A stretch of 64,000 bases of DNA from an uncultured delta proteobacterium (GTDB lineage: Bacteria; Desulfobacterota; Binatia; Binatales; Binataceae): NCBI GenBank assembly GCA_963808235.1, contig CAWEEQ010000004.1, positions 2,296,243-2,360,242 on the forward strand. Direction: 5' to 3'. Below, in pieces: positions 1,943 through 45,373 of this stretch. The notes under the pieces are model-generated. The model made no database searches. It had not been told where the DNA came from and worked only from the letters and a program-made list of their open reading frames with translations. How positions within the stretch are numbered: position 1 is the stretch's first letter; the number at the start of each line of letters is the position of its first letter. Made by a program: the position numbers and the translations under genes.

Positions 1943-2719
1943 TCACAAAAGTATAGACGTAAGGAAGTAATCCCATGCAAGAATCAGCACGCTCGAAAGC
2001 ACCACCGCCTCGGTGGTGGCGCGGCTAACCCCGGTCGCCATCCGTTCTGCGTGGTATCCCTTGTAGCAACAGACCCACATTACAACCACGCCGAAGACCA
2101 GCGCCTTGTAGAGACCGGTCATGATGTCGTGGCCGCTCATGTTCGCCGCGATGCCATTGAAGTACGCCCCCGATGGCGCTCCCATCAGGCCGACCCCGAC
2201 CGCATAGCCGCCCCAGATTCCGATCACGTCGAAGATGGCGGTCAAGAGCGGAAAACTTATGATGCCCGCCAGCATGCGCGGCGAGATCAAGTATTGAACC
2301 GGGTTGATCGCCATCACGGTCAGCGCATCGATTTGCTCGGTCGATTGCATCGAGCCGAGCTCCGCCGCCATCGCGGAGCCGGCGCGCGCCGCGATCATGA
2401 GCGCGGCGAGCACGGGACCAAGCTCACGCACCAGGACCAGGGCGACCACGGTGCCGAGCGCTCCGTCAGAGCCAAAGCGCCGGAGCGTGTTGTAGCCCTG
2501 TAAGCCCAGCACCATTCCAGTGAAAGCGCCGATCAGGATGATCAGGAACAGCGAATCGGCGCCGATGATCCTGATTTGACGGATCCACAAGCGCGGCTTG
2601 AACGGCGGGACAAATGTATAAAAGACCGCGCCGAGCAGAAAAATTACAAAATTGCCGAGCTGGACAACGCCGTCCAGGACCCGAGCCCCAAGCTGCTCAA
2701 TCATTTCCACGATCGACAT
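1943..2719 (-). CDS. mlaE: MlaE ABC transporter permease
   Basis: 258-aa polytopic membrane protein with the MlaE/Ttg2B pattern, directly upstream of mlaF. Confidence 0.9.
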   Translation of the reverse strand: MSIVEMIEQLGARVLDGVVQLGNFVIFLLGAVFYTFVPPFKPRLWIRQIRIIGADSLFLIILIGAFTGMVLGLQGYNTLRRFGSDGALGTVVALVLVRELGPVLAALMIAARAGSAMAAELGSMQSTEQIDALTVMAINPVQYLISPRMLAGIISFPLLTAIFDVIGIWGGYAVGVGLMGAPSGAYFNGIAANMSGHDIMTGLYKALVFGVVVMWVCCYKGYHAERMATGVSRATTEAVVLSSVLILAWDYFLTSILL

Positions 2720-2731
2720 CGGTCTGGTTTT

Positions 2732-3382
2732 TTAATGATGAGCAATCCCGAGCCGGGCCAGCTGATTGTGAGTATGCGTGTGCGATCCTGCACGCTCGAA
2801 TTCGGCGAGATCCGCGACGACGTCAAGGTCAAGCGCCGGTCGTGCAAGTCGCAGCACTGTAGCGGGAACATCGGTCGTTCGGCAATCGTCCAGATGCCGC
2901 ACCAGGCTCATCCGTCCGAACCGCGTCGCGACCGCGTCGGCCGGCGCCCGGCAGATCACGTTGGTGCCGGAGAAATCGCGCGACGGGACCAGCACCACGC
3001 CGCGGTCGGACCTGGACGGCATCGCGGCGAACACGGCGTCGATATCCTCTGCGGTAATGAGCGGGATGTCGGATAGCACGGTGCAAACGATGGAGGCGCC
3101 CTGGTCGATCAGCGCGGAGGTCGCAAGCGCGACGGCGGCGTTGAGCCCGCGCGGAAATTCCTCGTCGATGGTCAGCGCTTGCGCCGAGCGCGCCAGCTCG
3201 AGCAGCGCCGCATCGGAGGTCACCACGGCAACGTGATCGGCGGCGCGGGCGGATGACGATGCGGCCAGTACGTCACGGAACATTGCCTCGGCTAGCGCAC
3301 GACGCTCAGTCGGCGCAAATGCGCCCGCGAGCCTCGTCTTGGCAAATTCGAGCTGCTTGGCAGCGATAAGGATGACCCGCAC
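2732..3382 (-). CDS. CofC/FbiD-like 2-phospho-L-lactate guanylyltransferase (MobA-like nucleotidyltransferase)
   Basis: N-terminus MRVILIAAKQLEFAKTRL and an internal FSGTN motif resemble the CofC family. The call is by similarity only. Confidence 0.5.
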   Translation of the reverse strand: MRVILIAAKQLEFAKTRLAGAFAPTERRALAEAMFRDVLAASSSARAADHVAVVTSDAALLELARSAQALTIDEEFPRGLNAAVALATSALIDQGASIVCTVLSDIPLITAEDIDAVFAAMPSRSDRGVVLVPSRDFSGTNVICRAPADAVATRFGRMSLVRHLDDCRTTDVPATVLRLARPALDLDVVADLAEFERAGSHTHTHNQLARLGIAHH

Positions 3383-3637
3383 GGCGTATGTTTATAACCT
3401 ATCGCGCCCGCTTCTATCCAACGACGGAAGCCTGCATTGATCTTGCCTGCTTCGTCCTTCATTGGTACATGCCACAGGCCACGCGACCGGCGCAAAACCA
3501 TGGAGTCAGGTGCAGACTTGACAGTGTTTCCGTGTACGTCTCAACATAAAAGCTGGAGCCGTTATCGCTAGCGTCGTTTGTGCTCGTCGCCGGCCGCTAT
3601 TGAGCGAAGACCCGATTTCCCGGAGGGGACTATACCT

Positions 3638-4541
3638 GATGAACAAGAAGCCCTATTTCGAGAGCCGGAAAACAAGTGTGTGGTCGTGGGCCGGAGCCCT
3701 GCTTGCGGCCGGCGCGATAAGCCTGATCGTTGCCGGATGCCATCGCAAGACCGCCGATGACTATCTGGCCGAAGGCGACGCCGACATGCAGGCGACGAAA
3801 CTCCCCGACGCGGAGAAAGCGTACCAGGAGGCGGTCAAGCTGGCGCCGACCGATCCGCGAACACATATCGCGTTAGGCAACCTTTACGTTTTTGAACATA
3901 AGCCCGCCGACGCGCAGATCGAGTTCATGACCGTGCTCGAGTCCGATCCGAAAAACGCCGCGACTCACGTGGCGCTCGGCAACCTGTACGGCGATCAGAA
4001 CCAGCTCGGGCTGGCGGAAAATCAATTCCGCGCGGCGGTCGCGCTGGAACCCGATCGTCCGAACTACCATCTCGATCTCGGCGAAGCGCTGCGCAAAGAG
4101 GGCAAGACGTTGCCCGCGGAAGATCAAATCCGCACCGCAATCGGACTCAATCCAAAAGACGCGCAGGCGCATCTGGCGCTGGCAAATCTGCTCGCGAGCG
4201 CTCCAGGCCGCTCGGCTGAGGCCAACGCCGAGTTCGACCAGGTGCGAGCGCTCGACGCGAAGCTGGCACCCGCGCCAGTTAGTACCGCTTCGGCAGCGCC
4301 GGAGGCAGGCGCCACTGCCGCGACGGCGCCGGCTGGTCCGCCTCAAGTCAAGCCGCTCAACAAGCTCTTCGTGCTGACAAAGAATTCTCCGGTCTACCAG
4401 AATCCCGACGAGACCAGTTCCACGATCGGAGAAGTGCGCCGCAAGAAATATGTTCACGTGACCGGAATCGCAGGCAACTTTCTGCAAATCAAACTGAAAA
4501 ACGGCACCATCGGTTTCATACCGGTGGCCGCAGCGGAGTAG
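3638..4541 (+). CDS. TPR-repeat lipoprotein with C-terminal SH3b-like domain
   Basis: RBS GGAGGGG lies 9 nt before the ATG. Lipobox LIVAGC, several TPR repeats (ALGNLY x3), and a C-terminal SH3b-like segment. Confidence 0.6.
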
Positions 4542-4586
4542 CGCTCGCGGACTGGTCCTGAATTTTAATTTTCGAGGTGGACAGCG

Positions 4587-5296
4587 ATGGCGAATGAAGA
4601 CGTCGTCAGCCGTGAAGTGACCTATCCTGGCCGCGCGTGCGCCATGAAAGCATTTGTGGTCGAGCCCGCCAAAACGACGGCGCGCGTCCGGCGGTAATCG
4701 TGGTCCAGGAATGGTGGGGACTGAATGAACATATCCGCGACGTCGCGCGGCGCCTGGCGCGCGAAGGATATTTTACGATCGCGCCGGACCTGTACTCGCG
4801 CCAGGGGCACAAGGTTGCGACCGAGCCGAACCTCGCTGCGCAGCTCATGGGCGGGCTCAAGAAGGAAAACGGTATCGCGGATCTGCAGACCACGATCGAA
4901 TGGCTGCGCGCACAGAAACAAGCCCAATCGGCGCGAATCGGCATCACCGGATTCTGCATGGGCGGCAGCTACGCGACGCTGCTGCCGTGCGAGAGCCGCG
5001 AAATTTCTGCGGCAGCGCCGTTTTACGGCGAAATTCCTTCCGATGACAAACTTCAGAATCTCGGCTGCCCGATCTTTTATGCCTACGGAGAGAACGACGG
5101 CTGGATTCAGCGGATAGACGTCGATCGATTGGCGGGCGCGCTGAAGGAGTTCGACAAGCGCGGCGAGGTCAAAGTCTACAAGGGATGCTCGCATGGATTC
5201 TTCAACGACACTCGCCCTGACGTCTATCGTGCCGCCGAGGCAAAGGATGCGTGGGCGCACACGCTCAAGCTGTTCGCCGAAAATTTGAAGGCGTAA
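4587..5296 (+). CDS. Dienelactone hydrolase family protein, interrupted by a -1 frameshift near 4686-4690
   Basis: RBS GAGGTGG plus ATG at 4587 encode EVTYPGRACAMKAFVVEPAKTT, a DLH N-terminus. The rest (PAVIVVQEWWGLN...GFCMGG...CSHGF) continues in the other frame from about 4690. Confidence 0.7.
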
Positions 5297-5424
5297 TCCG
5301 CTGCACACCTTGCTGGCGCGCTAACTTCTTTGTGTCATTCTGAGCGCAGCGAAGAAACCCGAATCTTTCTCGGCGCAGAACACTTCGACTCACTGAGGGC
5401 ATGCGAAGCCGAGTTGCTCCGAAT

Positions 5425-7314
5425 TCAATCGATTCCCAGCAGCGCCGGATCGAGGTCCGGAGCGCTCAGATAGACGAGTCGCCCCTCGTCGGACGGGCGC
5501 TCCCGGAGCCATCGTGCGACGATGCTCATAGCCTCCAGCTCTCCGCGCTCGACGGGCTTCAGGTTGAATCGCTCGTAGTTGTTCGCGACGAACGCCGCGA
5601 CTTCTTGCGCCGCGCCCGCGCCGTCCAACTTCCGCGTCATCGCGAGTCGCCCAGCCAGCACCACGTGCGCCGCGCGATCGCCATTCTCACCGGTGACTAT
5701 CGCCAGGTTGTTTTCCGTGACCACCTGGCTAAGACGAGTCGCGCGATGAGCGAGCGTGGTCAGCGCTTCGAGATCGCGGCGGAACCGCCCCGCCTCCTCG
5801 AAGCGCATCGCGGCGGCCGCATGGTCGCGTGCTCTCGCCATCTCGCCGAGGAGCGGGCCAGCGCGCCCGCGCAGAAATCCGACCGCGCGCCGTACTCTCT
5901 CGCCATACGCGTCGACGCCGATGCTCACATTGCACGGCGCCGTGCAGTGACCCATCTGCCCATAGATGCACGGTGAAAAGTCTTCATGCGGTTTGAGCCT
6001 TCCCGAGCAAGTACGAAGCCCGAGGATTCGCGACAGCGCGCGAACAGAGTGATCGAGGCTCCGCCGTCCGATGAACGGCCCAAGATGCATCACGCCGCGC
6101 CGCGTGGTCATCTTGGTCGAGGTCGTCACGCGCGGAAACTCGTCCATCATGTCGAGCTTGATAAAATACGCCGGCGCCGCCGACTTGAGCTGCCGGTTGA
6201 ACGGCGGCTTGAGCTCGCGGATGAGCCGCGCTTCGTCGAGCGCCGCCTCGAGCGCCGAGCGCGTCGTCCGCGTCTCGATCTTGTACACGTGCGAGATTAG
6301 GTCGGCCGTCTTGGCGCTCACCGACGCTGAGAAGTACGACCCCACCCGCTCCCTGAGCCGTCGCGCCTTCCCGATATAGAGTAGGTCGCCGCGCTCATTG
6401 CGCATCAGGTACACGCCGGGCGCGAGCGGAAGTGCCACCACCTCCTCTGGCGTGACGTGACGCTCGATTCGCCGGCCCGCGATTCCGCGATGATGGTCGT
6501 CGAGCAGCCGATCGAGCCGCGTGATTCCCATCTTCTCCGCGATGTCGATAAAAATCGAAAGTATCTCCGCCGCCATCCGCGCGTCGCCGAGTCCGCGATG
6601 CCGCCCGTCGAGCGACAGCCCGAAGTGACCCGCGAGCAAGTCGAGGCGCCGGCGCTTGAGGGACGGCATGTAGCGCCGCGACATCCGGAGCGTGCACAGA
6701 ACCGGATTGGCGAGGCCGATTCCGAAGATGCGCCGGAATTCGAAGTTGAGAAAGCCGAAGTCGAACGCTGCGTTGTGCGCGACCATCACGCGGTCGCCCA
6801 TGAAGTCGCGAAACGCGGGCAACACCTCTTCAATAGGTGGCGCCTCGCGAACCATCTCGGTGGTGATCGACGTGAGCCCCGTGATAAATCGCGGCACCAC
6901 TCCGCCCTGCGGACGCACTAGGGTCTGGAATGATTCGGTCAGCCTCCGTCCGACCATCCGGTATGCGCCGATCTCGATAATGTTGCCGGGACCAGCGCGT
7001 CCGCCGGTGGTTTCCAGGTCAACGACGGTGAACTCTGCCTCGCTCAGCGGGACGCGCAGCCGATCGCTCTGCCGCAGCCGCCACTGTGCGTTCTCGGAAT
7101 CGAAAGCGAAATTAGGATCGCCGGCCAGGATTTGCGCAACGATCCGCGCGCCCAACTCGGGATCCGAGCCCGCGCCGCTAAAGAGAAGATCGACCAATTC
7201 TCCGGCGTCGGCGCCCGCCGGCCGCGAGCACAGAAACTGGTAGAGCTTCTGCTTCGTCGAAACCCCAAAATCGCGATGATTCCCGCCCGGAACTATCCCT
7301 TCTTCCACCGCCAA
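5425..7314 (-). CDS. DnaQ-like 3'-5' exonuclease fused to a GIY-YIG (UvrC N-terminal-like) nuclease domain
   Basis: DEDD exonuclease motifs (FTVVDLETTGG...HNAAFDFGFL...H..GDA) followed by GIY-YIG (PGVYLMRNERGDLLYIGKARRLRERV). Confidence 0.75.
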   Translation of the reverse strand: MAVEEGIVPGGNHRDFGVSTKQKLYQFLCSRPAGADAGELVDLLFSGAGSDPELGARIVAQILAGDPNFAFDSENAQWRLRQSDRLRVPLSEAEFTVVDLETTGGRAGPGNIIEIGAYRMVGRRLTESFQTLVRPQGGVVPRFITGLTSITTEMVREAPPIEEVLPAFRDFMGDRVMVAHNAAFDFGFLNFEFRRIFGIGLANPVLCTLRMSRRYMPSLKRRRLDLLAGHFGLSLDGRHRGLGDARMAAEILSIFIDIAEKMGITRLDRLLDDHHRGIAGRRIERHVTPEEVVALPLAPGVYLMRNERGDLLYIGKARRLRERVGSYFSASVSAKTADLISHVYKIETRTTRSALEAALDEARLIRELKPPFNRQLKSAAPAYFIKLDMMDEFPRVTTSTKMTTRRGVMHLGPFIGRRSLDHSVRALSRILGLRTCSGRLKPHEDFSPCIYGQMGHCTAPCNVSIGVDAYGERVRRAVGFLRGRAGPLLGEMARARDHAAAAMRFEEAGRFRRDLEALTTLAHRATRLSQVVTENNLAIVTGENGDRAAHVVLAGRLAMTRKLDGAGAAQEVAAFVANNYERFNLKPVERGELEAMSIVARWLRERPSDEGRLVYLSAPDLDPALLGID

Positions 7315-7415
7315 CTCCCCTTCGTCCTTTGTTCGCTTTAGCAGGGACTGCGCGTCTCGGCAATGTCTTTCGGCAACGTCCGCCGCATCGCGAATCGTGT
7401 ATAAGTGACGATTCG

Positions 7416-8111
7416 ATGCGTACCGATAGCGACGAACTCGCCCGTTACGTCACGGCGGAACTTCGCCGTCTTGCCGATCCCGCGAAAGCGCCGGCGATGG
7501 CGGCCTACATGAAAACCGCGCAAGCGTTCTACGGCGTGCAGACTCCAGCTCGCGCCATCATCATGCGCGAGACTCGCGATCGATTCGTGCCGAACGCCGA
7601 TAAATCGTACCAACGCAATGTACTCGCACTATGGAAGCTGCCCCATCGCGAGGAGCAATACTGCGCGATCGCGTATGCGCGGCAGCATCCGCGATTTACC
7701 ACGCCGGCCGCACTCCCGCTCTACGAGCGCATGATCCGCGAAGGAGCGTGGTGGGACTTTGTCGATGAGATCGCGATTAACCTGGTCGGCGCCGTGTTCG
7801 GAAATTTCCGCGCGAAGACCCGCCCCATCATCCAGCGATGGATCGACGACCCCGATATGTGGATTCGGCGCACCGCCCTGCTCTCACATATGAAGCACAA
7901 AGATCAGACCGACGCGGCACTGTTATTCGATCACTGCCTCCGGCGCGCGGGTGAGAGCGAGTTTTTCATTCGCAAAGCGATTGGATGGGCGCTTCGCGAA
8001 TACAGCAAGACCGACCCGCGCGCGGTTCGCGCGTTCCTCAAGAAGAACCGCAAACGGTTGTCGCGCCTCAGCTTCGACGAAGGCTCGAAGCATCTCGCAC
8101 GCGCGAAGTGA
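7416..8111 (+). CDS. DNA alkylation repair protein (AlkD/AlkC HEAT-like repeat family)
   Basis: DPAKAPAMAAYMKTAQAFYGV...WWDFVDEIA...WIRRTAL motifs. Start set at the ATG at 7416. Confidence 0.7.
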   Translation: MRTDSDELARYVTAELRRLADPAKAPAMAAYMKTAQAFYGVQTPARAIIMRETRDRFVPNADKSYQRNVLALWKLPHREEQYCAIAYARQHPRFTTPAALPLYERMIREGAWWDFVDEIAINLVGAVFGNFRAKTRPIIQRWIDDPDMWIRRTALLSHMKHKDQTDAALLFDHCLRRAGESEFFIRKAIGWALREYSKTDPRAVRAFLKKNRKRLSRLSFDEGSKHLARAK

Positions 8112-12026: not shown

Positions 12027-12326
12027 ATGATTGTGCTGAATGGGTTAATCCGTTCGATTCGGCACAGAGGGTTGAGGCGGCTGTACGAGAGCGGAGACGG
12101 TCGGGATCTGCCGGCGGCCCAGGTGGAGAAAATCTCGGACATTTTGCTGGCGATCGACGAAGCGGCGCACGCGAAAGAAGTCGGATTGTTCCCAGGCTGG
12201 CGGCTGCATCCGTTGAAAGGGAACCTGAAGGGTTTTTGGAGCGTCACTGTGAGCGGAAACTGGCGAGTAATCTTCCGGTTTGAGGAGGGTGACGCCTTCG
12301 ACCTTGATTTTGTTGACTATCATTGA
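12027..12326 (+). CDS. higB: HigB-family (RelE/ParE superfamily) toxin
   Basis: IRSIRHRGLRRLYESG...LPGWRLHPLKGNLKGFWSVTVSGNWRVIFRFEEGDAFDLDFVDYH matches HigB killer proteins. Confidence 0.75.
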   Translation: MIVLNGLIRSIRHRGLRRLYESGDGRDLPAAQVEKISDILLAIDEAAHAKEVGLFPGWRLHPLKGNLKGFWSVTVSGNWRVIFRFEEGDAFDLDFVDYH

Positions 12327-12343
12327 AGGAGTCATTGGAAATT

Positions 12344-12727
12344 ATGGCGATGAAGAGTCCACCGCACGTCGGCGGTTTAATCCGACGTCAGGTGATCGAT
12401 CCTCTCGGATTGTCAGTAACCGAAGCCGCGAAGGTCCTCGGGGTCGGGCGGCAGGCGCTTTCGAGCCTGCTGAACGGGAAGACGGCTCTTACCACCAAGA
12501 TGGGCTTGCGGGTCGAGAAAGCGTTTGGGCCGAAGATGGAGCACTTGATGCGAATGCAGCTTGCTTTCGATTTGGCTCAGGCACGTAAAGGGGAGCGCGG
12601 AGTGCGCGTAGAGCGCTACGTTGCGAAAAGAGACGCGAATCATCCGGGACGGCGCCGCAAAAAAGGTGCGCGGCGAATGGAGAGGCCGACCCGGAGTGAC
12701 CGGGCGGCGCGACGGCTGATACTATGA
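12344..12727 (+). CDS. higA: HigA-family HTH (XRE) antitoxin with basic C-terminal tail
   Basis: RBS AAGGAG lies 10 nt before the ATG. HPGEIL-like N-terminus (HVGGLIRRQVIDPLGLSVTEAAKVLGVGRQALSSLLNGK) and an Arg/Lys-rich tail that overlaps the obg start. Confidence 0.7.
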   Translation: MAMKSPPHVGGLIRRQVIDPLGLSVTEAAKVLGVGRQALSSLLNGKTALTTKMGLRVEKAFGPKMEHLMRMQLAFDLAQARKGERGVRVERYVAKRDANHPGRRRKKGARRMERPTRSDRAARRLIL

Positions 12728-39885: not shown

Positions 39886-41361
39886 ATGGAAAGCAGACTG
39901 TTCATCGCCGGACGCTATATCGATGCCGCCAAATCCTCGCGCTTCGCCGACGTCGAGCCTGCGACTGAGCGCGAACTCGCGCAAGTCGCGAGCGCCAGCG
40001 CCGACGACGTCAATCGCGCGGTCGTTGCGGCGCGCGAGGCTGCCGATCACGGCCCCTGGCCACGCATGAGCGCCGATACTCGCGCGGGAATCATTGGCAA
40101 GTTCGCCGACGGGATCGAAAAGCGCGCGCGGGAACTGGGCACGCTCGAGGCGCGCGACGTCGGCAAGCCGGTCTCCGAGTGCGTCAATCACGACGTGTCG
40201 CGCGCGGCGCGCAATCTGCGCTTCTTTGCCGCCGCGGCGCAGACCTGGACTCATGAGGCGGCGCAAAGCGACGCGAAATTTCTCGGCCGCGATTTGAAGC
40301 TGGTGAACTTCACCGAGCGTCCTCCGGTCGGCGTCGGCGCGATCATCATTCCGTGGAACTCGCCGCTGATGCTCGCGACGTGGAACCTGGGCCCCTGTCT
40401 GGCCGCGGGAAATAGCTGCGTGCTGAAGCCGTCGGAGCTGGCGCCGCTCACTTCGATTGCGCTCGGTGAGATCGCGAACGAAGCGGGACTGCCGCGCGGA
40501 GTGTTGAGCATCGTGCCGGGGCTCGGCGACGCAGGCGCTGCGCTGGTGTCGCATCCAGGCGTCGACGCGGTCGCGTTCACCGGCGGCGTCGAGACGGGGC
40601 GACTGCGTGATGGCAAGCGCGGCGACGACGCTCAAGCGCGTGATGCTCGAACTCGGCGGCAAGTCGCCCAACATAGTATTCGCCGACGCGAATCTGAAAC
40701 GCACTGCCGCCGGAGTGGCGCGATCGATCTATCGCAGCCAGGGACAATCATGCGTAGCGGGCGCGCGATTGCTGGTCGAGAGCAGCGTCGCCGCGGAATT
40801 CATCGAATTGCTGATCGCCGAAATACCAAAACTGAAAATAGGCGACCCGCTGAAAGACGACACCGAGTACGGCCCGCTCATCTCGGGGGCGCATCGTGAG
40901 CGCGTGCATGCGCTGGTCGCCGACGCGATCGCCAACGGCGCGAGCGTGCTGGCGGGCGGCAAGATTCCCGCCGAGCCCGCGACCGGTTTCTACTATATGC
41001 CCACGATTCTCGACGGCGTCGACGCGAAGTCGCGCGCCGCGTCCGAGGAAATATTCGGGCCGGTGCTGACTGTGGAGAGATTCGACGACGAAGAGCAGGC
41101 AATCGCGAGTGCGAACGCATCGCGCTACGGCCTCGCGGCTTACGTATGGACCTCGAAATCGATCGCGCGCTCAGAGTCGCAAACTCACTCAAGACCGGGA
41201 TGGTGTGGGTCAACAGTTTCTTCTTGCGCGATCTGCGGACTCCGTTCGGCGGCGCGAGGATGAGCGGACTCGGCCGGCAAGGCGGCCGCTTCAGCATGGA
41301 GTTCTGGACCGAGCCGAAACTTGTTTGTATCGCTTACGGTGAGGAGGAGCACGATGGGTAG
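39886..41361 (+). pseudogene. Aldehyde dehydrogenase (CHMS-dehydrogenase-like) with two compensating frameshifts (+1 near 40605, -1 near 41150)
   Basis: ALDH motifs are split over three ORFs: ...VAFTGGVETGR | VMASAATTLKRVMLELGGKSP...EEIFGPVLTV...YGLAAYVWTS | IDRALRVANSLKTGMVWVNSF. The outer segments share one frame. Confidence 0.75.
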
Positions 41362-42251
41362 GGTGGTCGCCGCGGTGTTCACGACGCACGTGCCGAGGTT
41401 GATGATCCTCGATCAGAGCGCGCGGGTCAGGTACATGGGCCGCAATGTGACGACCTTCTACGACGCGATGCCGCGGCTTGAGCGCGAGCGGTTGCACACG
41501 CTCGACTTCGACACCTTCCTGCTCTTCGACACTCACTGGTTCTCGACCCTCGAATACGTGCTCAACGCGCACGAGCAGCTGCGCGGCGTGTACACCTCGG
41601 AAGAATTGCCGGCAGATGCTCCACGATCTCGAGTACGACTACCAGGGCGACGCCGAACTCGCGCGCGCGGTCGAGTTAGAGGCTCGCGAACGGGGCATTC
41701 GGGCAATCGCGTCGGCGCATCGGAACCTGCCGATACATTATCCGACGCTTAACGTGATGCACTATTTCAATCCCGATGCGCGCCGACGAGTGCTATCGGC
41801 AAGCGTTTGTCAGACCGCGTCAGTGAGGAACGACCTCGCTTATGGCGCGGCGATTGGCCAGGCAATTTGGAAATCCAATCGGCGCGTGGTGATCGTCGCG
41901 TCGGGCGGAATGTCGCACAAGTTCTGGGACTACGATCGAATTTTAGATCGCGCGTCGGCGTCGCCCGAGGACATCGCGTCGACCGCCAATCGCCTTTACG
42001 ACGAGCGGATCATGGAATGGTTCAAGCAGGGGCGTCACGATGCGGTGCTCGCCGCCGCCGACGATTTCCGCGCGCATTGCTCGCCGGAGGGCCGCTTCTC
42101 GCACTACATAATGATGGCGGGCGCGATGGGCGGCGACTCGTGGAACTGGCGCGGCGAGCAATTTGGAAAATACGAGGCAGCGATCGGAACCGGCCAGGCA
42201 ATCTTCTTCTTCCAACCATCAAGCGGCGGCGCCGCCCGCGCGGCTGCCTGA
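41354..42251 (+). pseudogene. LigB-type (class III) extradiol ring-cleavage dioxygenase with +1 frameshift near 41618
   Basis: N-terminus MGRVVAAVFTTHVPRL and later ...YDYQGDAELA...NLPIHYPTLNVMHYFNP...VVIVASGGMSHKF lie in two frames that join at EELP|QMLHD. Confidence 0.7.
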
Positions 42252-42272
42252 GTCAGTTCCTGGAGGTGCGCA

Positions 42273-43162
42273 TTGAAACTTGCACGCGGAATATTGGCGA
42301 TGCTGGTGACGCCGTTTCATGATGATTATCGGCTGAATGAGGCGGCGCTCCGGAAAGAGGTGCAGTGGGCGATCGCAAGCGGCGCGCAGGGCGTGGTTGC
42401 GGCGCCGAGTATCGGCGAGTTCCTCCATATGAACGAAGCGGAACGTGCGAGAGTCTTCGAGATCGTCGTTGAAGAAGCGCGCAAGCATCCGAATGTCTCG
42501 ACAGTCGCGATGACCTCGGGCGCGACGACGCTCGAAACGCTCCACTACGCGAAGATCGCCGCGCGACTCGGATACGACGCGCAGCAGGTGATCCCGCCCT
42601 ACTACTGGCGATGCGGCGAGGCCGAAGTCGAGCGTCATTACAGGATGATCGCCGAGGCTGGCGATTTGCCGGTCGTCATCTACCACAATCCCGCGCTCAG
42701 CAAGTTCAACATCTCGCCGAAGTTTCGCGGGGAGACTCGCGACGATCGAGGGCGTCGTGGCATTCAAGGAAGTGCTGACCGATTTGCAGCATCTCGAGGC
42801 GCTCTACGACGAAGTGGACGGCCGCGCCGATATTTACAATACGTTTCGCGCGATGCTGGCCGGGTTGATGCTCGGAGCGGCCGGGCGGCTTCATCAACAT
42901 TTTCGCGGTGCCGGCGTCGGTCGCATTGATGAAGGCCTTCAAGGCCGGCGATTACAAACGCGCAGAGGAAATTCAGCGTCGTCTCAACCGATGCTTCCCG
43001 CGCGGTGGCGAGGAAACTCTGGGCCATCTCGGAACGACCAAAGTAACCGCCTCGGTAGCGACCGGAATCGAGATGGGTCCGGCGCGGCCGCCGTACATGG
43101 CGCCCGCGGACGCCGCGGAGCGAATCCGGAAACGCTTGCCGCTGCTCAACGAGGTCATCTGA
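42273..43162 (+). pseudogene. DapA/NAL-family (dihydrodipicolinate synthase-like) aldolase with two frameshifts (near 42726 and 42887)
   Basis: LAMLVTPF...IYHNPALSKFNISPKF | AGRLATIEGVVAFKEVLTDL...AMLAGLMLGAAG | GFINIFAVPASVALMKAFKAGDY lies across three frames. Confidence 0.7.
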
Positions 43163-43163
43163 T

Positions 43164-44609
43164 ATGGGCGCGCGATCGGGCAACAACTATCTGACCTCGC
43201 TGAAAAAGCTTGGCGCTGAAATCTGGATTGGCGGCGCACGAGCCGGTGATGTGACCGCGCATCCGGCGTTCGCAAACTGCGCGCGTTCAGTCGCCTCGCT
43301 CTACGACATGCAGATGGAGCATCCCGAGACGATGACCTTCCGCACCGACGATGGCGGACGCGCCGGGATGTCGTTCATGATTCCGAAAAGCGTCGAGGAC
43401 GTTCGCAAGCGAACCCGCATGATGAAGTCATGGGCGGACTTCGGATGCGGGATGCTCGGGCGCACACCCGATTATCTGAACGTGAGTATCGCGGCGATGG
43501 CAGCGGCGCGCGAATTCTTTGCAGCCAGCGACAAACGCCACGGCGACAATATCTGGAACTATTATCTCGAGGCGCGCCATCACGACTGGTGCGCGACGCA
43601 TACGCTGGTAAATCCGCGGGCGAGCCGCGCACAAGGATGGTCAGGACACACCGACGCCGAGTTGGCTCTGAGACTGGTCGAGAAGACCAAGGACGGCATC
43701 ATCGTGAACGGATGCCGGATGCTGGCGACGTTGGCGCCACTCTCGGAAGAATTGCTGGTCTTTCCTTCGACAGTGCTTAAGGCCGAACCGGCTGCCGAGC
43801 CGTTCGCGCTCTCGTTCGCAATCCAGTGCAACACGAAGGGTCTCAAGTTCCTGTGCCGCGACACATATGACCTCGGACGCTCGCGCTTCGACCATCCGCT
43901 CGCGTCGCGCTTCGACGAAATGGACGCGGTGGTCGTGTTCGACAATGTGCTGGTTCCGTGGGAGCGGGTGTTCCTGTGCGGCGATGTTGCGCGATGCAAC
44001 GCGCTGTATGGAGAGACCGGCGCAGTCGTCCACATGATGCATCAGGTGGCGGTGAAGAACGTTGCGAAGAGCGAGTTCCTGCTCGGACTGGCCGCGCGGA
44101 TCGCGGAGGCGAGCGACGCGATGGTGTTGCCGCATGTACGCGAGCGGCTTGCGGAGATGATCACGACCACCGAAACGATGCGGTCCTGTCTGCGCGCCGC
44201 GGAGGCTGACTCAAGTGCGGACAAGTGGGGAGTGTTCGCGCCGGCGCGCGCGCCGCTCGACGCGGCGCGCAACCTCTTTCCGCGCCTGTATCCGCGGATG
44301 GTGGATATAATCCAGCTCAACAGCTCGAGCTCGCTGATGGCGACGCCGGCGGAGAGCGATTTCGCCAATCCTGCCGAGCTGCCCGATATCGAGCGTTACT
44401 TCGCGGCAGCGGACTCACCGGCGCGCGAGCGCGTCGCGCTTTACCGGCTGGCGTGGGAAGTCGCATGCAGCTCCTTCGGCGGTCGCCAGGTCTTGTACGA
44501 GCGGTTTTTCTTTGGCGATCCGGTCCGGATGGCCAGCGCGCTGGTAGATAACACGGATCTGAAGCCGCTTGTCGAGAAGGTTAGGGCGTTTCTGAAGCGC
44601 CCCGACTGA
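43164..44609 (+). CDS. HpaB-family 4-hydroxyphenylacetate 3-monooxygenase-like oxygenase component (two-component flavin monooxygenase)
   Basis: N-terminus NYLTSLKKLGAEIWIGGARAGDVTAHPAFAN.ARSVASLYD matches HpaB. 481 aa, intact. Overlaps the stop of the preceding gene. Confidence 0.75.
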   Translation: MGARSGNNYLTSLKKLGAEIWIGGARAGDVTAHPAFANCARSVASLYDMQMEHPETMTFRTDDGGRAGMSFMIPKSVEDVRKRTRMMKSWADFGCGMLGRTPDYLNVSIAAMAAAREFFAASDKRHGDNIWNYYLEARHHDWCATHTLVNPRASRAQGWSGHTDAELALRLVEKTKDGIIVNGCRMLATLAPLSEELLVFPSTVLKAEPAAEPFALSFAIQCNTKGLKFLCRDTYDLGRSRFDHPLASRFDEMDAVVVFDNVLVPWERVFLCGDVARCNALYGETGAVVHMMHQVAVKNVAKSEFLLGLAARIAEASDAMVLPHVRERLAEMITTTETMRSCLRAAEADSSADKWGVFAPARAPLDAARNLFPRLYPRMVDIIQLNSSSSLMATPAESDFANPAELPDIERYFAAADSPARERVALYRLAWEVACSSFGGRQVLYERFFFGDPVRMASALVDNTDLKPLVEKVRAFLKRPD

Positions 44610-44660: not shown

Positions 44661-44675
44661 AGTATAGTGGTTTCG

Positions 44676-44951
44676 ATGACGGCAAAATTGAGAGTCGATA
44701 AAGCCGGTCGAGTTGTTCTTCCCAAACCGGTGCGGGAAAAATTGCGGCTTGCCCCAGGTGACGAGTTGGAACTCAAGACGACCGACGACCAGATTACGCT
44801 GCGTCCGTTGCGCGGCACCGCACAGCTCCGGAAAAAGTGCGGCGTGTGGGTGTTCCATTCCGGCGAGCCACTATCCGCCTCGGCAGTCGAGGAGACAATC
44901 GAGCAGATTCGGCGTGAGCGCGATGAGCGGAACACTGGACGGAGGCATTGA
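44676..44951 (+). CDS. vapB: AbrB/MazE/SpoVT-family antitoxin VapB
   Basis: MTAKLRVDKAGRVVLPKPVREKLRLAPGDELEL is the swapped-hairpin antitoxin pattern. Confidence 0.75.
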   Translation: MTAKLRVDKAGRVVLPKPVREKLRLAPGDELELKTTDDQITLRPLRGTAQLRKKCGVWVFHSGEPLSASAVEETIEQIRRERDERNTGRRH

Positions 44952-45373
44952 GAGCCTTCTTCGATACCTCGGTTCTGATCCCCGTCTTTATCGAGGAGCA
45001 TGAACATCACGAGCGAAGTCTGCGCGCTTTTGTCGATGCTGATAAAAAGCGGGACTGCTGTGCCGCTCACAGCATGGCCGAAGTCTACTCCACGATGACC
45101 CGGTTGCCAGGACGACATCGCTTAAGCGGCGAGCAGGTGTTCCTCTTTCTTGAGAACATTCGGGAGCGTCTTACGCTCATCACCCTCACCGGCGACGAGT
45201 ACCACGGGGCGATCAAGGAGGCAGCTGAGGTTGGTATCGTGGGCGGCACGATCTATGACGCCTTGATTGCACGTTGTGCGCTGAAGGCGAAGGCCGAGGC
45301 TATCTACACTTGGAATACGAGACACTTCGAGCAGTTCGGAGCGGAGGTTGTGAGGCGGCTCCGAGCACTTTGA
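44948..45373 (+). CDS. vapC: PIN-domain toxin VapC
   Basis: MRAFFDTSVLIPVF start and acidic PIN residues. 4-nt overlap with vapB. Confidence 0.8.
   Translation: MRAFFDTSVLIPVFIEEHEHHERSLRAFVDADKKRDCCAAHSMAEVYSTMTRLPGRHRLSGEQVFLFLENIRERLTLITLTGDEYHGAIKEAAEVGIVGGTIYDALIARCALKAKAEAIYTWNTRHFEQFGAEVVRRLRAL

Follow-up and report, generated by a model that had tools for sequence, protein, structure and literature searches.

The hpa cluster of E. coli W/C and Klebsiella, which comprises hpaBC, hpaD/hpcB, hpaE/hpcC, hpaFGH and hpaI, is the described system closest to the operon studied here, which lies in a 64-kb stretch of DNA (hereafter, the window) from an uncultured Candidatus Binataceae bacterium. 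The two are alike in that the HpaB of the window scores over the HpaB-1 equivalog cutoff, its dioxygenase is of the LigB type like HpaD and its aldehyde dehydrogenase (ALDH) is closest to HpaE. By contrast, the operon of the window consists of four genes, within which the HpaC reductase, HpaF/G/H and the class II aldolase HpaI were not found, and a class I aldolase of the DapA/N-acetylneuraminate-lyase (NAL) family occupies their place. The missing genes may be located in other parts of the genome. Moreover, the scores of its HpaD-like, HpaE-like and aldolase proteins are below the curated cutoffs, and their substrates are putative.

Three of these four genes are broken by frameshifts, and two further systems can be compared with this pattern. 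The first is the set of indel errors described for MAGs assembled from Nanopore reads only (PMC12313526; R10.4 evaluation in PMC9262707). As in those MAGs, single-base indels split ORFs in the window, the lesions in this gene cluster are confined to long-read assemblies and the coding signal persists undamaged on either side of the breaks. However, the classic errors occur at homopolymers and become more frequent with low coverage over the whole MAG, whereas the breaks in the window lie in runs of at most 3 nt, are mostly insertions and fall within 2.3 kb of an otherwise clean 64 kb. The second system is that of genuine multi-hit pseudogene clusters, with which the window shares the disruption of each of several adjacent genes of one pathway, but from which it differs in its insertion bias and in having no raised dN/dS, nonsense mutations or larger deletions. 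We consider, with a probability of about 0.8, that the five frameshifts are single-base errors left in the consensus of a metagenome assembled from long reads only and would not be found in the genome itself.

Composition of the Operon

The genes are arranged in the order hpaE-like ALDH, hpaD-like LigB dioxygenase, DapA-family aldolase and hpaB, all on the plus strand. Their neighbors are a LON-substrate-binding-domain gene on the minus strand and a VapBC pair. The original prediction had named them as ALDH, LigB dioxygenase, DapA-like and HpaB, and these identifications were confirmed with Pfam, NCBIfam, the PDB entry 8iq8 and an alignment with NAL.

The HpaE-like, NAD-dependent aldehyde dehydrogenase (39886–41361) passes from frame 1 to frame 2 and back to frame 1. 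The Pfam Aldedh profile was matched at positions 4–219, 222–404 and 405–461 in three ORFs, which are contiguous, consecutive segments in different frames, and the span was also supported by tblastn with the orthologues of loci L004, L006 and L010. Once repaired, the protein has 491 aa, aligns across 100% of 491-aa homologues and carries the sequences ELGGKSP and GQSCVAG. Its best NCBIfam family was TIGR02299 (HpaE), with 514 bits (cutoff 638), and the 2-hydroxymuconic semialdehyde dehydrogenase family gave an almost equal score.

The HpaD-like class III (LigB-type) extradiol dioxygenase (41354–42251) passes from frame 2 to frame 3, and its first 8 nt lie within the end of the ALDH gene, an arrangement shared by locus L081. 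The Pfam LigB profile was matched at positions 2–77 and 76–259 in two ORFs. TIGR02298 (HpaD_Fe) was the sole NCBIfam match of this protein (298 aa after repair), with 187 bits (cutoff 316), and its best PDB relative was 8iq8, a 3,4-dihydroxyphenylacetate 2,3-dioxygenase (E = 4e-35, residues 1–288).

The DapA/NAL-family gene (42273–43162) passes through frames 3, 1 and 2 and encodes 295 aa when repaired, or 286 aa if the start is taken as called in relatives. The Pfam DHDPS profile was matched at positions 3–146 in the first of its three ORFs, and its span was likewise supported by tblastn. Every NCBIfam match was under its cutoff, including TIGR02313 (“HpaI-NOT-DapA”, 93 bits against 397). The sequences VIYHNP and VAFKEV aligned with the E. 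coli NAL motifs VVYNIP and GALKQT, which we take to bear the catalytic Tyr and the Schiff-base Lys.

The gene for HpaB, the oxygenase component of 4-hydroxyphenylacetate 3-monooxygenase (43164–44609), had been reported as unbroken, and it is indeed a single ORF of 481 aa with the Pfam domains HpaB_N and HpaB. It reached 567 bits with TIGR02309 (HpaB-1), over the cutoff of 480, and 89–91% identity with orthologues from Binataceae MAGs among the matches listed. The four genes together would encode a homoprotocatechuate (4-hydroxyphenylacetate)-type aromatic ring cleavage, with putative substrates for the ALDH, the dioxygenase and the aldolase.

Position and Clustering of the Frame Breaks

Five single-base indels, four of them +1 insertions and one a -1 deletion, were located in the three broken genes by nucleotide alignment and by tblastn searches with intact orthologues. 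The first, in the ALDH gene, was located by nucleotide alignment with 12 relatives, the nearest (L081) among them, and is an extra T at 40604 between CGAC and GCG, giving CGACTGCG, with no homopolymer. The second, also in the ALDH gene (41156–41159), is the deletion: in TCGAA-ATCGAT one base is lost after 41157, at a site where relatives have TCGAAYACC or TCGAACGTC. The dioxygenase gene contains an extra A at 41614 between CCGGC and GATG, giving CCGGCAGATG, again with no homopolymer, and both sides of this base match L081 and L082 exactly. In the DapA-like gene, AAG-TTC has become AAG-TTTC at 42723–42725 (TT to TTT), and a further base has been added in GCGG-C-CGGGCGG at 42881–42885 (C to CC or GG to GGG). 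At each extra base the flanking sequence on both sides is identical with that of the nearest relatives. The original prediction had put the breaks at 40605, 41150, 41618, 42726 and 42887; all five are present, 1–8 nt from the refined positions. It had also rightly remarked that the indels are outside long homopolymers, since no run at a break is longer than 3 nt and two sites lack a run altogether.

When the whole window was scanned for frame changes by a codon-usage Viterbi method, exactly the same five breaks came up in the operon, and a dienelactone hydrolase gene at about 4680 gave the only other probable frameshift. Two more frameshifts had been claimed elsewhere in the window, the second of which was not found. 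The other candidates were mostly separate genes (MlaD/MlaC, HigBA, L21/L27, obg/proB and ECH/AMP-ligase), as was a small ORF before a NirB-like gene. No second, paralogous copy of the operon that might confuse the assembly was found within the 64 kb.

The clustering of the breaks is not due to chance (P about 1e-5). The probability that five of six or seven events fall within 3.3 kb of 64 kb was 2e-6 to 7e-6, and an approximate scan statistic gave 5e-5 to 2e-4. At most one or two frameshifts were present in the other 60 kb, despite 20 homopolymers of at least 6 nt. As the other sequence is so nearly clean, a generally poor assembly cannot account for the cluster, and some local cause must be assumed. 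The intactness of HpaB is nothing special, because the probability of zero events in 1.45 kb at the local rate was about 0.1 (Poisson estimate) and HpaB is broken by frameshifts in other long-read MAGs.

Frameshifts in Orthologous Loci

Among the matches listed, dozens of Binataceae MAGs carry the operon in synteny, and its gene content varies, the ALDH or the DapA-like gene being missing in some relatives. In a tblastn census of the orthologous loci, 19 well-supported frameshifts were counted in 227 kb of “contig_N” loci from Microflora Danica, against none in 223 kb of short-read sequence (34 loci). Chance alone would assign all 19 to the long-read class with a probability of 2e-6. The Microflora Danica MAGs were obtained from Nanopore reads only, with Flye and one round of Medaka and without short-read polishing, and were checked by their authors for Nanopore-associated errors (PMC12313526). 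The long-read events were single-base and at different positions from MAG to MAG; +1 insertions accounted for 10 of the 14 that were typed, and several were in a non-homopolymer, GC-rich context. The lesions of the window resemble them, with four insertions and one deletion. The split genes of this operon are therefore probably a property of Nanopore-only MAGs and not of the organisms, as far as the assemblies compared can indicate. As a minor observation, an insertion motif of GCG to GCAG or CGC to CTGC fits sites 1 and 3 of the window, and possibly two ambiguous sites in L047.

Regarding the source contig, ten of the ten intact window proteins tested were traced to a single NCBI/ENA contig, 3,849,788 bp long. 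A soil MAG contained in a single contig of this length points to a long-read assembly, and a long-read platform is thus presumed for this contig.

A second copy of the operon from the same species was sought by several routes. Exact-protein searches with HpaB, two of the frameshifted ORFs and a TPR protein gave no match, and a DNA pattern across site 3 retrieved only 85%-identical relatives from the JGI metagenomes. Protein searches with the repaired queries gave best identities of 94% (LigB), 94% (DapA-like) and 93% (ALDH), and the members of the LigB cluster were at most 96% identical, with no same-species copy in either case. TrmB alone led to a short-read contig of the same species (L089), 99.9% identical over most of the aligned length, which covers trmB and stops short of the operon.

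Selection on the Repaired Genes

With the five indels undone, the three genes could be read through to proteins of 491, 298 and 295 aa, uninterrupted by stop codons and spanning 97–100% of full-length homologues. The His/Glu-containing motifs of LigB and the Tyr- and Lys-containing motifs of the aldolase aligned with those of solved homologues. The dN/dS values against relatives were 0.10 for the ALDH, 0.05–0.07 for LigB and 0.05–0.06 for the DapA-like gene (nearest relatives), which are equal to or lower than those of intact-versus-intact pairs and equal to that of HpaB. In a relative-rate count over the three broken genes, 28 amino-acid changes were specific to the window and 38 to its intact sister L081. 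In these comparisons, the three repaired genes show no sign of relaxed selection.

These values bear on the strongest alternative, a real and very recent pseudogenisation, in which the ring-cleavage branch would have fallen into disuse, the ALDH, dioxygenase and aldolase genes would each have been knocked out by single-base indels, and hpaB would be intact by chance or kept for another use. The tight grouping of five lesions in three successive genes of the same pathway fits this explanation, and so does the near absence of frameshifts from the other sequence of the window, long homopolymers included. Nevertheless, we regard it as unlikely, since dN/dS in the three broken genes is low (0.05–0.10), lineage-specific replacements are not in excess, and neither nonsense codons nor deletions, whether in-frame or longer, are present. 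If indels make up about a tenth of mutations, five neutral indels would be expected together with about 50 substitutions, some 37 of them non-synonymous and about 2 nonsense, and the excess of substitutions expected from real decay was not seen in the three repaired genes. Five indels without substitutions would require an indel-to-substitution ratio far beyond the bacterial one. Bacterial pseudogenes are biased toward deletions, and four of the five lesions are +1 insertions, the opposite of that bias. Furthermore, equivalent lesions in orthologous operons were restricted to Nanopore-only MAGs (0 of 34 short-read loci). It is quite improbable that an unusually indel-rich, insertion-biased process very recently disabled the genes for the dioxygenase, semialdehyde dehydrogenase and aldolase in this soil lineage while the HpaB hydroxylase was kept. 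If it did, the comparable frameshifts of other long-read MAGs would represent a recurrent loss of the pathway in the family, and the lesions would be a modest case of very recent pathway loss.

Origin of the Frame Breaks

Residual consensus errors are favored because this class of lesion was found only in long-read MAGs and because the repaired genes show no relaxed selection. The original prediction had left the choice between pseudogenisation and a low-coverage assembly patch; the same two results favor poor assembly over pseudogenisation. The errors would be concentrated in a locally ill-resolved stretch of 2.3 kb, possibly because of a coverage dip, for instance if part of the population lacked these genes, or alternatively because reads of co-occurring related populations contaminated the pile-up during polishing. 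Three observations go against an assembly error: the indels are outside long homopolymers, the classic site of Nanopore errors; a local cause is needed, since the other 60 kb are nearly error-free; and the ALDH or DapA-like gene is also lost naturally within the family, as would suit pseudogenisation.

A literal reading of the sequence would score this genome as lacking aromatic ring cleavage and would overstate the number of pseudogenes in an uncultured soil phylum. Errors of this kind can cluster tightly in an otherwise clean contig, and homopolymers are not required. Because they cluster and split genes, frameshift-aware annotation or short-read polishing is needed before metabolic inference.

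A chimeric or minor-variant consensus, in which bases from a sub-population or a related strain would have been introduced and haplotypes stitched into a sequence of no single real genome, is very improbable. Several samples did yield at least two Binataceae MAGs with the operon (among the matches listed), the operon is somewhat more conserved than its upstream flank (80–88% against 73–80% nucleotide identity), the long-read frameshifts are enriched in the operon over the flanks (17 against 2) and their positions almost coincide between MAGs. However, the downstream flank is about equally conserved and yet has no frameshifts, and dS against L081 was uniform across the four genes (0.51–0.57), with no mosaic signal, which argues against a recombinant origin of the broken stretch.

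Finally, programmed recoding, by which ribosomal frameshifting or transcriptional slippage would restore the three proteins in vivo, has a negligible probability: each shift is +1 or -1 and nothing further, but the five sites in three genes share no slippery motif, and more than 30 short-read assemblies, in the comparison with orthologous operons that had been suggested, encode the orthologues in one frame at exactly these positions.

Frameshifts in the hpa-like operon

The ORF map of 38.5–46 kb showed co-directional ORFs overlapping in different frames. In the Pfam searches, Aldedh was split over three ORFs (profile positions 4–219, 222–404 and 405–461) and LigB over two (2–77 and 76–259), DHDPS (3–146) was found on the first of the three ORFs of the DapA-like gene, and HpaB_N and HpaB lay within a single ORF of 481 aa (43164–44609, +), intact as originally predicted. 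When intact orthologues were used as tblastn queries, the frame paths were 1>2>1 in the aldehyde dehydrogenase (ALDH) gene, 2>3 in the LigB dioxygenase gene and 3>1>2 in the DapA-like gene. Nucleotide alignments resolved the lesions, all on the + strand, to single bases: an inserted T at 40604 and a deleted base at 41157/8 in ALDH, an inserted A at 41614 in LigB, and two +1 insertions in the DapA-like gene, at 42723–5 (TT to TTT) and 42882–5. These positions are at most 8 nt from those of the original prediction, and a Viterbi scan of codon usage across the 64 kb identified precisely the same five breaks. At none of the five sites does a run exceed 3 nt, in agreement with the claim that most of the indels are outside long homopolymers. 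Five of the six or seven events of the window fall within 3.3 kb (P = 2e-6 to 7e-6), and the cluster is real and not due to chance.

The insertions within 40596–40612 and 41607–41622, neither in a homopolymer, create CTGC and GCAG, that is, GCG to GCAG on one strand or the other. Two insertions at LigB sites of L047, a relative's locus, can be read in the same way, the alignment there being ambiguous.

Two more frameshifts had been claimed elsewhere in the window, of which one was retained as probable, a -1 event near 4680 in a dienelactone hydrolase gene (4587–5296, +). The N-terminal ~30 aa are in one frame, with a stop at 4697, and the remainder (Pfam DLH 9–215) forms the ORF 4616–5296; at the junction (about 4678–4686, ACGACGGCGCG) a G is apparently missing. 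The other same-strand frame changes are ordinary gene boundaries. The suspected frameshift at 12081–12550 (+) was read, by three-frame translation, as two genes in adjacent frames, a HigB-like toxin and a HigA-like antitoxin.

Identity of the genes

The predicted gene identities proved correct. Undoing the five indels (four bases out, one in) yielded products of 491, 298 and 295 aa, free of internal stops, which span 97–100% of full-length homologues. In NCBIfam, HpaB scored 567 bits against a cutoff of 480 for TIGR02309 (HpaB-1). HpaE was the closest family to the repaired ALDH and HpaD_Fe the sole match of the LigB protein, both below the curated cutoff. The closest solved relative of the latter was 8iq8, a 3,4-dihydroxyphenylacetate 2,3-dioxygenase (E=4e-35, full length), with which its THVP, FDTHW, SHKF and EG motifs align. 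The third protein belongs to the DapA/N-acetylneuraminate-lyase (NAL) family, with weak NCBIfam matches below the curated cutoff that include 'HpaI-NOT-DapA'; it can be aligned to E. coli NAL, and its VIYHNP and VAFKEV motifs match those that supply the catalytic tyrosine and the Schiff-base-forming lysine in NAL. The four genes are predicted to form a compact homoprotocatechuate-type operon for ring hydroxylation and meta-cleavage. Since hpaC, hpaFGH and a class II HpaI are missing from the operon, its substrates are putative.

Assembly error or pseudogenisation

Either real pseudogenisation or an assembly artefact had been proposed, and the second is favoured: we put the probability that the five indels are assembly errors at roughly 80%. 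The records place all ten intact window proteins tested (10/10) on a single NCBI/ENA contig, 3,849,788 bp long, which for a soil MAG points to a probable long-read assembly. The loci of relatives were surveyed by tblastn with their ORFs, a frameshift being scored where adjacent HSPs of one query lay in different frames. In the 'contig_N' loci from Microflora Danica, 19 well-supported frameshifts were found in 227 kb (L001, L003, L008, L014, L023, L047, L048, L049, L050 and L053), against none in 223 kb of short-read loci (named k127, k141, NODE or Ga...), a split with a chance of 2e-6. The long-read MAGs of that project are Nanopore-only, assembled with Flye and one Medaka round without short-read polishing, and its authors examined them for Nanopore-associated errors (PMC12313526). 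Their lesions are single-base and differ in position from genome to genome; 10 of the 14 typed events are +1 insertions, several in GC-rich, non-homopolymer context. The window has the same profile (four insertions, one deletion), and each inserted base is flanked on either side by sequence identical to that of the nearest relatives. HpaB itself is frameshifted in four of these MAGs, so its intactness in the window is not meaningful. The 90% identity cluster of the window's HpaB (P0296–P0302) contains truncated (247–465 aa) and fused (891 aa) forms, mostly from long NCBI/ENA contigs, which are probably further frameshift products of long-read MAGs.

Real, very recent pseudogenisation is unlikely. 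If indels make up about a tenth of spontaneous mutations, five neutral indels would be accompanied by ~50 substitutions, ~37 replacements and ~2 nonsense codons, and no such excess is present in the repaired genes. The dN/dS against relatives was 0.10 for ALDH and, against the nearest relatives, 0.05–0.07 for LigB and 0.05–0.06 for the DapA-like gene, not above intact-versus-intact pairs nor the window's own HpaB. With L083–L085 as outgroup, the three genes carry 28 window-specific amino-acid changes versus 38 specific to L081, the nearest relative with an intact operon, and 2, 3 and 0 singleton changes fall at sites that are otherwise invariant. Bacterial pseudogenes, moreover, have a deletion bias, whereas the lesions of the window are biased towards insertion. 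On this indirect evidence, the frameshift cluster is most probably absent from the organism itself, whose operon is, as biology, an ordinary hpa-like one.

Possible local cause

The window is clean outside the cluster, even at its 20 homopolymers of at least 6 nt, so the cluster needs a local cause. In the long-read loci (L003, L008, L014, L023, L047–L050 and L053, with the operon at about 2650–7443 in each), frameshifts were enriched in the operon, with 17 there versus 2 in the flanks (95 versus 79 kb assayable), or 9 versus 2 by locus. Independent MAGs have frameshifts at nearly the same positions (ALDH aa 238/244, LigB 87/100, DapA 143/150, HpaB 139/139), with six close pairs by hand count versus ~2.5 expected by a rough estimate; both L047 and L053, which come from one sample, are frameshifted at HpaB aa 139. 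These data suggest an error hot spot in the operon that depends on sequence context or on the locus. Conservation is slightly higher in the operon than in the flank upstream of it, the matches listed include more than one operon-carrying Binataceae MAG from several samples, and some relatives lack ALDH beside LigB (L002, L005, L007 and L012) or the DapA-like gene (L011 and L013) while keeping LigB and HpaB. It is thus plausible that mixed pile-ups from related populations or, alternatively, a depth dip from presence/absence polymorphism would have caused the indels.

Synteny and same-species sequence

By its HpaB relatives, the window belongs to Candidatus Binataceae. The gene order of the operon and its neighbours, a LON-domain gene upstream and, downstream, trmB and a gene for a TPR lipoprotein, is conserved in dozens of Binataceae MAGs among the matches listed. 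The nearest intact operons (L081, JGI Ga0210407_10004488, and L083–L086) share ~85–88% nucleotide identity. No copy of the operon from the same species was found by exact look-ups, by scanning JGI data for a DNA pattern or by three protein searches (at most 93–96% identity). The sole same-species short-read contig, L089 (Logan run ERR10755935), has 99.9% identity over most of the stretch that aligns, spans trmB and ends before the operon. Between hpaB and trmB the window carries a VapB(AbrB)/VapC pair (44667–45373, +), in the place of which a MazE-like gene and a different small ORF occur in the nearest relatives. Positions 1–88 of L089 depart from the window upstream of 45406, which suggests strain-level variation at this toxin-antitoxin site.
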